From the NCBI GenBank assembly GCA_964521955.1, contig CAZFTX010000003.1, forward strand, positions 1,517 to 65,516: a stretch of 64,000 nt of DNA, written 5' to 3'. Below are positions 53,951 to 56,000 of this stretch, in pieces (the stretch's first letter is position 1; each line of letters starts with the position of its first letter). Origin of the DNA: an uncultured Candidatus Saccharibacteria bacterium. GTDB taxonomy: Bacteria > Patescibacteriota > Doudnabacteria > UBA920. Both the position numbers and the translations under genes were made by a program. A model generated the notes under the pieces. The model was not told where the DNA came from. It did no database searches and saw only the letters and a program-made list of their open reading frames with translations.

Positions 53951-53978
53951 GTACTGTTTACTGTGTACTGTTTACTGT
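53951..53978. repeat. Tandem heptamer repeat (TTTACTG)n, locus 1 (spans the tkt stop codon)
   Basis: gtactgtttactgtgtactgtttactgtag; on the coding strand this is (CAGTAAA)n, which contains the tkt TAA stop. Confidence 0.8.
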
Positions 53979-55879
53979 AGTTTATTGGTACTTAATAAAG
54001 ACTTAATTGTATTTACTATACTGGTAGAGTCTATTTCTTCAAAAGCTAAAAGCTCTTCTGGCTTTCCGCTCCTTGGCATTTTTGTTACAGCTAAACTTTT
54101 AACTTTATAACTTGAAAGACTTGAAACTGAAGCCAAGCTACTAGCGACGGCTTCGTAGATCCCCCCTTCTTTAAAATTATCTTCAACTGTAATAATATTT
54201 TTAGTTTCTTCCGCCGCTTTTTTTAAAGTTTCCGTGTCAATTGGCTTAATACTGTACAAGTCTATCACCCGAATATTTATACCTTCATTTAAAAGTTCCT
54301 CGTACGCCTTTAAAGCTTCATGCAAAGTAACCCCTGCACCTATAACTGTAGCTTGGTCTTTATCCGATGATTTTAATACGCACGACCCCCCAATTTTAAA
54401 TTCATGCTCAACTAAATTTGTTTGCTGTTTACTGTTTACTGTTTGCTGATTACTATAAACGATTGTTGTTTCTTTTCTAGTCGTCTGAATATAAACGTTC
54501 CCGTGGTGCTTAGCCGCTTCTAAAACTAATTTTTCGGTAGAAACAGCGTCAGAAGGATACAAAACGACTGAATTTAAAAGCGTTCTAAACATTGCTATTT
54601 CTTCCAAACCCATTTGACTTGCACCGTCTTCACCTATTGAAACCCCGGCGTGACTGCCAATAAATTTAATATTAGCGTCGGAAAGTGCGCTCATACGAAT
54701 TTGGTCAAAAGCCCTGCTTAAAAAAGCCGCAAAAGTAGAGACAAAAGGAATCTTTCCTCTTTTGGAAAAACCTAAAGCCATTCCCACCATGTTTTGTTCC
54801 GCAATAAAACACTCTACAAATTTTTCGAGGTGTTTTTTCTTAACGGTATCAGCAAAAGTAGAATTACTGGTTTCCGCATCTAAAACAATAATTTGAGGAT
54901 TAACATCAACCAAATTAGCTAAAACATTTCCATAGGCTTTTCTAGTCGCAATCTTTTTTTCAGGAGAGTATTGAGTAAACGGTATACTGTAAACTGATTT
55001 ATTTTCTTCTGTATACTGCGTACTGTTTACTGTTCCCGGTTTCTCTATTTTCCCCACCATTGTCTTATCAACATTCCCAATTTCAACCAAAGCTTTTTCC
55101 AATTCTTCCTGAGAAAGCGCTTTGCCATGCCAGCTGTCTTTGTCTTCCAAAAAAGAAACACCTTTACCCTTCAACGTCTTCGCTATTATCATAAAAGGCT
55201 GATCTGCAGATAAGCGAACATGCTGATAAGCTGAGGCAATTTCTTCAAAATTATGTCCGTCTATAACAATAGTTTTCCAACCAAAAGCTTCAACGCGTTT
55301 TTGATAAGTTTCAGTATTATCTCCCAGCATAGTTTCTCCTCTTTGACCTAAGCGGTTCACGTCTAAAATTCCAACTAAGTTGTTAAGTTTATAGTATGAC
55401 GCTAAACCCATAGCTTCCCAAACACTACCTTCAGCTATTTCACTGTCTCCAAGTAAAACAAAGGTTTTGTAGTCCCGCTTTTCTAACTTAGCATTTAAAG
55501 CCATTCCAAGCCCCACGCTCAAACCTTGTCCTAAAGACCCGGTTGGAACTTCGGTATAAGGAAACTCCAAAGTTGGGTGACCTTCGAATCGACTACCAAA
55601 AGTTCTTAAGGTCAGTAATTCTTCTTCACTAACTTTCCCTGCAGCCGCATACAAAGAGTAAAAAAGCGGACTAGCATGGCCTTTAGAAAAGATTAATCTA
55701 TCGTTATTAGGGTTTTTTGGATTTTCCAAATCAAATTTAAAATTTCCACCAAACATTAAAGCCACCATAATATCTACAGCAGATAACGAAGAAGTAGGAT
55801 GCCCGCTACCGGCTTTGGTTGTCGAAACTAAACAGTAGTAACGTACTAATTTTGCTAGTTCTTTTATGTTATTTTCCAT
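53972..55879 (-). CDS. tkt: Transketolase
   Basis: 635 aa; 'STTKAGSGHPTSSLSAVDIMVALMF' ThDP-binding N-terminus; Pyr and C-terminal domains present. Confidence 0.85.
   Translation of the reverse strand: MENNIKELAKLVRYYCLVSTTKAGSGHPTSSLSAVDIMVALMFGGNFKFDLENPKNPNNDRLIFSKGHASPLFYSLYAAAGKVSEEELLTLRTFGSRFEGHPTLEFPYTEVPTGSLGQGLSVGLGMALNAKLEKRDYKTFVLLGDSEIAEGSVWEAMGLASYYKLNNLVGILDVNRLGQRGETMLGDNTETYQKRVEAFGWKTIVIDGHNFEEIASAYQHVRLSADQPFMIIAKTLKGKGVSFLEDKDSWHGKALSQEELEKALVEIGNVDKTMVGKIEKPGTVNSTQYTEENKSVYSIPFTQYSPEKKIATRKAYGNVLANLVDVNPQIIVLDAETSNSTFADTVKKKHLEKFVECFIAEQNMVGMALGFSKRGKIPFVSTFAAFLSRAFDQIRMSALSDANIKFIGSHAGVSIGEDGASQMGLEEIAMFRTLLNSVVLYPSDAVSTEKLVLEAAKHHGNVYIQTTRKETTIVYSNQQTVNSKQQTNLVEHEFKIGGSCVLKSSDKDQATVIGAGVTLHEALKAYEELLNEGINIRVIDLYSIKPIDTETLKKAAEETKNIITVEDNFKEGGIYEAVASSLASVSSLSSYKVKSLAVTKMPRSGKPEELLAFEEIDSTSIVNTIKSLLSTNKLQ
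54421..54455. repeat. Tandem heptamer repeat (TTTRCTG)x5, locus 2 (inside tkt, in frame)
   Basis: tttgctgtttactgtttactgtttgctgattacta; translated in tkt as 'SNQQTVNSKQQTN'. Confidence 0.8.
55011..55031. repeat. Heptamer repeat (NNTACTG)x3, locus 3 (inside tkt)
   Basis: tatactgcgtactgtttactg; encodes 'TVNSTQY' in tkt. Confidence 0.6.
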
Positions 55880-55972
55880 AGATAAATTTAGTATTTTATT
55901 AATACTGTTATTCTATCGTAACTTTACTTAAATACCAAAAAATCCCCAAAATATAAAATTTTTGAGGATTTT

Positions 55973-56000
55973 TTACTGTTTACTATTTACTGTTTATTGT
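55973..56000. repeat. Tandem heptamer repeat (TTTACTG)x4, locus 4 (spans the metK stop codon)
   Basis: tttactgtttactatttactgtttattg; on the minus strand it reads ...AACAGTAAATAG, giving the metK final codons and stop. Confidence 0.8.

Follow-up and report, generated by a model that had tools for sequence, protein, structure and literature searches.

Why does one heptanucleotide recur at the ends of genes, between genes and within the reading frame of an essential enzyme? This question is raised by a stretch of 64,000 nucleotides (the window, with positions counted from its first letter) from an uncultured Candidatus Saccharibacteria bacterium placed among the Doudnabacteria (contig CAZFTX010000003.1, positions 1,517 to 65,516), in which tandem copies of CAGTAAA lie in and around the genes metK, tkt (transketolase) and glpX. 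The coding strand of nearly all genes in the window is the minus strand, and TTTACTG on the plus strand is CAGTAAA on the coding strand. One NCBI contig and two Logan contigs encode this transketolase with 100% identity; its nearest named homologs are from Candidatus Doudnabacteria, members of the candidate phyla radiation (CPR)/Patescibacteria. A first-pass annotation had reported heptamer arrays at four sites around tkt and metK and a copy in the opposite orientation near the start of glpX, and had read them as a dispersed microsatellite that could provide stop or termination signals, or as a binding site for a regulator.

We found that the array at the tkt stop codon and the array before glpX, which is on the opposite strand, together make up an inverted repeat of 29 nt, one arm each, and that the sequence between them encodes an intervening-sequence protein (IVP). 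With moderate confidence, we propose that the arrays belong to a dispersed and lineage-specific family of CAGT-core heptamers, of the type of the short tandemly repeated repetitive (STRR) sequences and the TAACTGA repeats, and that this family is tied here to an operon cassette resembling the intervening sequences (IVSs) of rRNA genes. Heptanucleotide repeats have been recorded since 1990 without an accepted origin, spreading mechanism or function, and the IVS-encoded protein is likewise uncharacterised. The locus and a survey of 48 IVP genes link the two and provide a testable lead on the origin of the repeats. What is new here is that heptamer arrays form the inverted arms of an IVS-like IVP cassette in an operon.

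The IVP cassette and its repeat family in the window

The cassette has the following parts:

53948..53978, minus strand: 5' arm, coding strand ACAGTAAACAGTACACAGTAAACAGTACACA, a 14-nt period repeated 2.2 times
53929..53945, minus strand: Shine-Dalgarno-like tandem repeat (TAGGAAA)x2.4, directly upstream of the IVP start codon
53572..53928, minus strand: IVP open reading frame (ORF) of 118 aa, intervening-sequence protein by the PF05635 and TIGR02436 profiles
53536..53565, minus strand: 3' arm, an inverted copy of the 5' arm, coding strand CTGTATACAGTTTACTGTATGCTGTTTACT

The IVP ORF scored 137.5 bits against PF05635 (cut-off 33.8) and 128 bits against TIGR02436 (cut-off 24). The tkt ORF (53972..55879, 635 aa) ends within the first unit of the 5' arm, with its stop codon TAA at 53972-53974, and the 3' arm begins 7 nt past the IVP stop and ends 6 nt short of the likely glpX ATG (53531). 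The arms pair over 29 nt (53536-53564 with 53948-53976) with 86% complementarity, and the cassette measures 441 nt from arm to arm (53536-53976). When a region of 511 nt was folded, the arm stem enclosed the ORF in both the minimum free energy and the centroid RNA structures. The cassette is sense-oriented in the metK-tkt-glpX gene string, with no space for a promoter or terminator of its own.

This anatomy resembles that of the IVSs in the 23S rRNA of Leptospira and Coxiella burnetii. The C. burnetii IVS is 428 nt long, contains a homologous S23p ORF, has a 28-bp terminal stem that is cut mid-stem by RNase III, and is preceded by 2-3 strain-variable heptamers (GACAGAT) just upstream (PMC4990558). 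The cassette likewise has a PF05635/TIGR02436 protein, a stem of about 28-29 bp around the ORF, a size within the range of about 430-450 nt (441 versus 428 nt), strain-variable heptamers just upstream of the ORF, and a sense orientation in the host transcription unit without a promoter of its own. Unlike the rRNA IVSs, it lies between the protein genes tkt and glpX and is not inserted in a helix of 23S or 16S rRNA; an Rfam search of 51000-58500 found no rRNA, and its only match was a sub-threshold SAM (S-adenosylmethionine) riboswitch upstream of metK. The cassette also differs in that its arms are themselves heptamer arrays, which overlap a stop codon and abut a start codon, and in that the arm repeat has further copies scattered within and near the neighbouring genes of the window. 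RNase III excision is a feature of the rRNA IVSs that the cassette may share.

The IVP ORF also matches the bAvd-like family PF22296 (48 bits), a four-helix-bundle fold family that it shares with the Avd proteins of diversity-generating retroelements (DGRs). A DGR was rejected as an explanation of the locus: the ORF scored 53 bits against the DGR Avd equivalog NF033474, below the cut-off of 80, its neighbours are tkt and glpX with no adjacent reverse transcriptase, and the window has no long near-identical repeats that could form a template and variable repeat pair.

Tandem Repeats Finder (TRF) and direct reading placed imperfect heptamer arrays (TTTACTG on the plus strand) at 53948-53978, 54419-54454, 55009-55034 and 55972-56000, confirming the four sites of the first-pass annotation with boundaries shifted by a few nucleotides; its opposite copy at 53536-53565 is the 3' arm. 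Not on its list were 44367-44384, 60410-60434, 54975-54996 and the 118-aa ORF between the tkt-stop and glpX-proximal arrays. In total, the CAGTAAA-type family has 8 loci within the 64 kb. The 14-mer TTTACTGTTTACTG, with at most one mismatch, has 12 matches versus 0.10 expected from dinucleotide shuffles, and arrays of period 7 number 12 versus a mean of 2.6 and a maximum of 6 in 30 such shuffles. Outside the cassette, the arrays are:

55972..56000, minus strand: solo array CAATAAA-CAGTAAA-TAGTAAA-CAGTAAA, which spans the metK stop and encodes the metK C-terminus TINSK; identical in the close strain L003
44367..44384, minus strand: solo array TAGTAAACAGTAAACAGT, which provides the TAA stop of a TPR-repeat protein gene (44372..45088)
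60410..60434, plus strand: antisense-orientation array, coding strand TTTACTGTTTACCGTTTACTG; conserved in L003
55009..55034, minus strand: in-frame array in the tkt inter-domain linker (residues ~282-290, GTVNSTQY); also in L003
54975..54996, minus strand: inverted partner of the linker array (residues ~295-302, SVYSIPFT)
54419..54454, minus strand: in-frame solo array in a tkt surface loop (residues ~477-488, NQQTVNSKQQTN), with CAGCAAA as the units in the TAA reading frame

The CAGTAAA arrays are a dispersed microsatellite biased towards gene ends, as had been suspected: three of the 8 family arrays span a stop codon (chance P ~7e-4), and so do 11 of the 38 period-7 arrays across five Doudnabacteria loci (P ~2e-9). 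Besides the tkt and TPR-gene stops, the metK ORF (55983..57203) ends inside its array with TAG at 55983-55985, directly followed by TAA. Others are translated, one in antisense orientation (60410-60434, read as the hydrophobic LLFTVYCLF in the signal-peptide-like N-terminus of ORF 59528..60484) and two or three in sense with the stops mutated away. The idea that perfect (CAGTAAA)3 arrays mark the gene ends did not hold. There is no perfect (CAGTAAA)3 anywhere in the window, the longest perfect CAGTAAA run (20 nt) sits in the intragenic tkt loop array, and the gene-end arrays are imperfect too, the one at the tkt end being an alternation of CAGTAAA and CAGTACA with a period of 14 nt. A closure of all three frames, claimed for the gene-end arrays as a class, was found at the metK end alone, and the arrays at the tkt and 44372 ends close two frames each.

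Inverted repeats around IVP genes and CAGT-core arrays in other bacteria

IVP genes were collected from metagenome contigs (80 loci), from the genome loci L018 and L090, which were found via the repeat, and from the window; dereplication at 90% identity left 48 IVP genes with both flanks. The bracket was measured as the ungapped inverted-repeat score between the 150-nt flanks, with a threshold of 12. Scores of at least 12 were found for 39 of the 48 IVP genes and for 2 of 95 control ORFs from the same loci (Fisher p = 6e-24), with medians of 17.5 and 7, respectively (Mann-Whitney p = 3e-20). None of 40 representative IVP loci had an rRNA hit. An inverted tandem-repeat bracket is therefore general for IVP genes outside rRNA.

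The flanks of the IVP genes are tandem repeats with a period of 7 in the CPR-like relatives and of 8-9 in relatives from gut and rumen, and their units vary by locus (GTAAGTN, CAGTTCA, AGAATAC, AAGGAGT, CAAGTRG, GGAGTTAA). L018 and L090, metagenome-assembled genomes of other lineages, have the inverted-arm architecture of the window; in L018 the arms extend over about 100 nt, with (CAGTTCA/CAGTACA)n upstream and its complement downstream. The IVP gene was co-oriented with both neighbours at 33 of 36 loci, versus 46% expected from the background of gene-pair orientation (p = 1e-8), and the median gaps to the neighbours (67 and 60 nt) leave space for the arms only.

Among plasmid records with an IVP homolog, 24 of 26 were cyanobacterial (Nostoc, Calothrix, Trichormus and others). 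Inspection of six such loci revealed inverted heptamer arms in four (TCAGGAG/TCAGAAG-type units in three, GGGTGTA/TACACCC in one), arms with an 8-9-nt period in one and no arms in one. The plasmid arrays stand upstream of the IVP gene and the inverted copy begins at its stop codon, for example TCAGGAG/TCAGAAG-type units followed, beyond the gene, by TGACTTCTGAATTCT. On a plasmid of Picosynechococcus sp. PCC 7003 (NZ_CP016476.1, 126543-126899), an IVP cassette with inverted 8-9-nt repeat arms occupies a type III-B CRISPR operon, where it separates cas10 from cmr3 and runs in the same direction as both. A phage vector for horizontal spread was rejected, since the phage database contained only distant DGR Avd proteins (30-36% identity) and viral contigs gave no match.

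To judge from published heptamer repeats, the window arrays are a CPR member of a known and unexplained class that comprises STRR sequences, heptameric simple sequence repeats (SSRs) and, especially, TAACTGA repeats. The STRR heptamers CCCCAGT, TTGGTCA and CAACAGT go back to Mazel et al. 1990, as cited in PMC4692102. Like them, the window arrays are tandem heptanucleotides at many loci, mostly intergenic, and the CAGT core recurs in two of the three STRR units; unlike them, the window arrays are short (2-5 units), and unit and phylum differ. The TAACTGA repeats (MacGregor 2015) are found in marine Beggiatoaceae, cyanobacteria and Bacteroidetes, with horizontal spread suspected and no mechanism found (PMC4679880). 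[quoted passage not shown] The window arrays share with them the dispersal of 2-6 tandem heptamers at gene junctions, the patchy distribution across phyla and the dependence of placement on orientation, with one orientation overlapping ORF ends and the other translated at protein peripheries. They differ in unit (CAGTAAA/CAGTACA) and CPR host, in that most window arrays follow stops and do not precede starts, and in that arrays in the stop-bearing orientation stay in frame inside an essential enzyme after point changes. One heptamer unit thus recurs at many loci with junction placement by orientation, as in the STRR and TAACTGA repeats, yet this unit, CAGTAAA/CAGTACA, is identical to none of CCCCAGT, TTGGTCA, CAACAGT and TAACTGA and has only the CAGT core in common with described units. 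As far as the searchable literature shows, no link of STRR sequences to IVP cassettes has been described.

CAGT-core arrays themselves are found well beyond the CPR. When one genome per species was scanned for (CAGYAMA)3, at least 120 loci were found; the matches listed, with no sign of a Doudnabacteria genome among them, include (CAGTAAA)n in Microcystis, Brasilonema, Komarekiella, Sphaerospermopsis, Spirulina and several Bacteroidota, and in Chloroflexota, Acidobacteriota, Planctomycetota, Elusimicrobia, Gammaproteobacteria and Saccharibacteria. Frequent flanking units are CAGTGAA, CAGTAAT, CAGTCAA (the STRR3 unit), CAGTTAT (the reverse complement of TAACTGA) and CAGTACA; CAGTCAA is mixed with CAGTAAA in arrays of cyanobacterial genomes (L059, L108), and CAGTTAT with CAGTAAA in L109. 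Both orientations occur at 18 of 77 CAGT-core loci, and in 16 of these 18 the order is 5'-(CAGTnnn)n..(nnnACTG)n-3'. The gaps within such pairs are 6-183 nt (ORF-less hairpins), or 488 nt where an IVP gene lies inside.

Strain differences and arrays within transketolase

Two Logan assemblies match the window at 100% identity. In Logan SRR31968663, a close strain with 96% identity (L003), there are just 2 substitutions over 2.1 kb of metK and the 5' part of tkt, and the sequence is mosaic downstream. Its first divergent patch (55290-55051, 39 differences) halts at the linker array, the second (54870-54331) peaks at the loop array, and the third runs from ~54090 through the tkt 3' end; the divergent patches thus adjoin arrays. 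L003 keeps the metK-end and tkt linker arrays. Missing from it are the IVP ORF and both arms, the one at the tkt end included, with all that the window has as far as the glpX ATG; 28 nt separate the L003 tkt stop from glpX. It also lacks the tkt loop array, with NDISDKNEQKL at that position. The cassette is therefore polymorphic between strains by presence and absence.

The arrays that are shared (metK end, tkt linker and 60410) have identical unit numbers in L001, L002 and L003, the few strains sampled, and the length polymorphism between strains that the first-pass annotation had suggested checking was not seen. Phase-variable contingency SSRs were rejected on the same few strains, in which the differences are presence or absence of whole arrays in recombination patches. 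The coincidence of arrays with the boundaries of inter-strain recombination patches and with assembly breaks matters for the annotation and binning of CPR genomes. One of the identical contigs (L001, Logan SRR16481186) stops at 53529, the right cassette boundary before the glpX ATG, consistent with an assembly-graph branch from the repeat or with coexisting haplotypes with and without the cassette. Gene content is also in flux elsewhere between strains that are otherwise 92-98% identical: L003 carries an extra ABC substrate-binding gene between a cohesin-like gene and metK (compared with window 57442-58384) and additional genes, about 2 kb in all, near window 49.77 kb.

In more distant Doudnabacteria the cassette lies between tkt and glpX (L004 and L208, as in the window) or between glpX and fba (L207), always with inverted heptamer arms; in L208, three genes are inserted between tkt and the cassette. 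A second, remnant copy of the tkt 3' tail (EEIDSNAIIKQVKLLGSRQ*) is found in L208 at 14150-14290, directly upstream of a 9-unit IVP 5' arm, which suggests joint movement or recombination of the tkt tail, the arm and the IVP gene. In another contig (L006, JGI 3300007457), tkt breaks off at 2300-2310 (window 54219) and continues into internal glpX sequence of inverted orientation, after which come the 3' arm and the IVP gene; the junction is either chimeric assembly or a genuine inversion of the cassette-bearing segment.

Inside transketolase, as the first-pass annotation had noted, the arrays are translated (NQQTVNSKQQTN and GTVNSTQY), and every unit in which the frame would read TAA has CAA or TAT instead. 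The linker array and its inverted partner (55009-55034 and 54975-54996) form an imperfect hairpin with a 12-nt loop and no ORF (-12.6 kcal/mol, z = -1.95, 6 of 200 shuffles as good). This pair has the appearance of a cassette without ORF through which translation continues in frame. Among 32 aligned transketolases of the Doudnabacteria type, both array sites fall in indel-variable columns, and the loop insert is missing in some homologs. Other homologs carry 7-residue-periodic peptides from other heptamers, such as SSKYQVASSKE (AGCAAGT) and SSKQTAVSSKQ (AGCAGTA). The linker and loop arrays often have the same unit within a genome, and this unit varies from one genome to the next: the window has CAGTAAA, L004 has AAGTAGC and L207 has AAGCAGT. 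The loop array and a third in-frame array of L208 have the CAGTAGA/CAGTAAA unit of the L208 IVP arm. These shared units at fixed tkt sites point to homogenisation or to repeated invasion at permissive sites.

An AlphaFold2 model of the transketolase had a mean predicted local distance difference test (pLDDT) score of 81, with values below 50 in three segments only: 481-486 inside the loop-array insert, 289-293 encoded between the two linker arrays, and the unrelated 411-419. In blocks of 10 residues, the linker averaged 61 (281-290) and 57 (291-300). According to this model and the alignment, the in-frame arrays occupy disordered, indel-tolerant segments. The repeats alter gene products in a reduced CPR genome by replacing C-terminal and stop codons and by adding inserts, predicted to be disordered, to an essential enzyme. 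Doudnabacteria transketolases range from 599 to 708 aa, with low-complexity inserts at five or six fixed positions of the homolog alignment; examples are RRSAEALAKE, SPQPSP..., PLPNPPPQGEG..., FPISNFQFPISN and VKSEKLKVES. Several of these inserts seem to derive from the translation of repeats, tandem or hairpin, that belong to other families.

Origin and effects of the arrays

In the explanation that we favour, the cassette, made of a 5' heptamer arm, the IVP ORF (predicted to be an Avd-like four-helix bundle) and an inverted 3' arm, would be carried in the transcript of its host operon. The two arms would pair to a stem of about 29 bp enclosing the IVP ORF, and by analogy with the 23S rRNA IVSs this stem would be a substrate of RNase III, whose cleavage would allow the host to tolerate the insertion and would release tkt, IVP and glpX as separate messages. 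We infer the pairing and processing from that analogy, and the causal link from the cassette to the solo arrays from the shared unit and the proximity in one genome. The other arrays (metK stop, TPR-gene stop, tkt linker and loop) would be solo or hairpin-paired copies of the family, which presumably persist only where they do little harm: in the last codons of genes, where TAA serves as the stop codon, or in disordered segments of tkt, where TAA-frame units may have been mutated to CAA or TAT.

Several observations weigh against this explanation. The overall fold of the 511-nt cassette region is not unusually stable (z = -1.3). Mismatches in the arms have no excess of G-U on the sense strand (43 G-U versus 55 A-C), and because of this, selection for an RNA stem over DNA-level inverted repeats is not demonstrated; the pairing may possibly act at the DNA level. 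Further arrays of the same unit within 3 kb of other IVP genes gave 3 hits in 24 loci, so that local spread as in the window is unusual. In L004 and L207, the unit of the in-tkt arrays differs from that of the IVP arms. Across phyla, only 2 of the 120 array loci among the matches listed have an adjacent IVP gene, which rules out the IVP as a general neighbour of the arrays. The difference between the window and L003 is a mosaic replacement and not a clean insertion with target-site duplication, and cassette mobility is for this reason not directly shown.

The arrays could instead be ordinary replication-slippage microsatellites that arose independently at each site and survived neutrally, their adjacency to IVP genes being a coincidence or due to shared permissive spacers. 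Heptameric SSRs are over-represented in many bacterial genomes, and slippage over the footprint of the polymerase has been proposed as the reason (Mrazek 2007, as cited in PMC4692102). Array units do differ between related genomes, the arrays turn over rapidly, and many different units occur at gene junctions, one of them in the window:

52513..52548, minus strand: imperfect heptamer array of a different unit, (AGAATTA)x5, which spans the glpX stop and the start of the next gene (DUF2090/DeoC aldolase)

This junction is heptameric also in L003 (AAGAATT) and L004 (AGAATAA), has no IVP gene, and is conserved across genomes with 73%-identical tkt. Independent slippage does not account for one unit at 8 sites in 64 kb with 12 matches where 0.1 are expected, for the recurrence of CAGT-core units across phyla, for the strict polarity of their inverted pairs (16 of 18), and for brackets at 39 of 48 IVP genes versus 2 of 95 controls. 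We consider slippage an unlikely explanation of the whole pattern.

Avd-type proteins are nucleic-acid-associated in the biology of DGRs, and the arrays could be binding platforms for a post-transcriptional or DNA-binding regulator (the IVP itself or a protein of the S1, Csp or CsrA type) that tunes the translation or coupling of the neighbouring genes. The 3' arm comes to within 6 nt of the glpX ATG, which has no Shine-Dalgarno sequence, and the arrangement is the same in L004 and L208; the upstream arms of many IVP genes contain Shine-Dalgarno-like AGGAG units, and the downstream arms their complement. A regulatory role was also MacGregor's proposal for the TAACTGA repeats, which mostly end one to a few nucleotides upstream of starts without a Shine-Dalgarno sequence (PMC4679880). 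Neither copy number nor unit sequence, however, is conserved between close relatives. The close strain L003 has the same operon without three of the arrays, and arrays inside coding sequence are unlikely as operators. We regard binding platforms of this kind as improbable; on the regulator site suggested in the first-pass annotation, the evidence is neutral.

The reading in which gene ends carry cassettes selected as three-frame stops (translation insulators) or for termination, for which speak the three genes that end inside arrays, the metK array with its stops in three frames and tandem TAG-TAA, and the position of arrays across phyla (45 of 113 among the matches listed are CAGT-sense at or within 50 nt after a stop, versus 4 in the mirror orientation), is very improbable, because of the three gene-end arrays two leave one frame open, homologous arrays have stop-free units (CAGTACA, AGTGACA, CAATATC), L003 lacks the tkt-end array, the published account treats stop overlap as a consequence and not a function (PMC4679880), and termination after metK is better explained by a separate hairpin. 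The contrast of 45 versus 4 is partly forced, because a stop-rich sequence ends any ORF that reads into the array, and the cross-phylum position bias is no more than suggestive. The arrays folded alone have no intrinsic-terminator structure (z = 0.6 and 0.1), and the separate hairpin (-17.7 kcal/mol, z = -3.9, with equally good folds in 0 of 200 shuffles) is the following:

55929..55982, minus strand: hairpin with U-tract, resembling an intrinsic terminator; situated just downstream of the metK array, separate from the heptamers

Beyond this locus, we raise a broader and doubtful possibility. IVP genes with inverted tandem-repeat arms could be widespread, unrecognised selfish cassettes that ride in operons, with the rRNA IVSs as a special case; the cassettes or their protein would generate or disperse arrays of the STRR/TAACTGA type, and these arrays would remodel essential CPR proteins, as in the linkers and loops of transketolase. 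If so, the heptamer arrays of cyanobacteria, Bacteroidota, Beggiatoaceae, CPR and other phyla would stem from IVP cassettes or their protein.

The sub-threshold riboswitch upstream of metK is a full-length match to the SAM riboswitch model RF00162 at 57310-57405 (minus strand), with 26.4 bits versus a gathering threshold of 44.4 and E = 0.015. Its location is plausible for a divergent CPR S-box, and a related locus (L131) has a SAM riboswitch above the threshold.

Other repeats in the window are of a different kind. A direct repeat of 68 nt (94% identical, 32807-32874 and 33891-33958) forms the 5' ends of two paralogous minus-strand genes, and this pair flanks 32948..33790; long ORFs on the plus strand that are free of overlap with a longer one on the minus strand, as this one is, are very few in the window. 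A motif of 40 nt (83% identical, 42053-42092 and 49495-49534) with TAGTATATT...TTAGTAAAA lies in the spacers upstream of two long minus-strand genes and may be a shared promoter or leader element.

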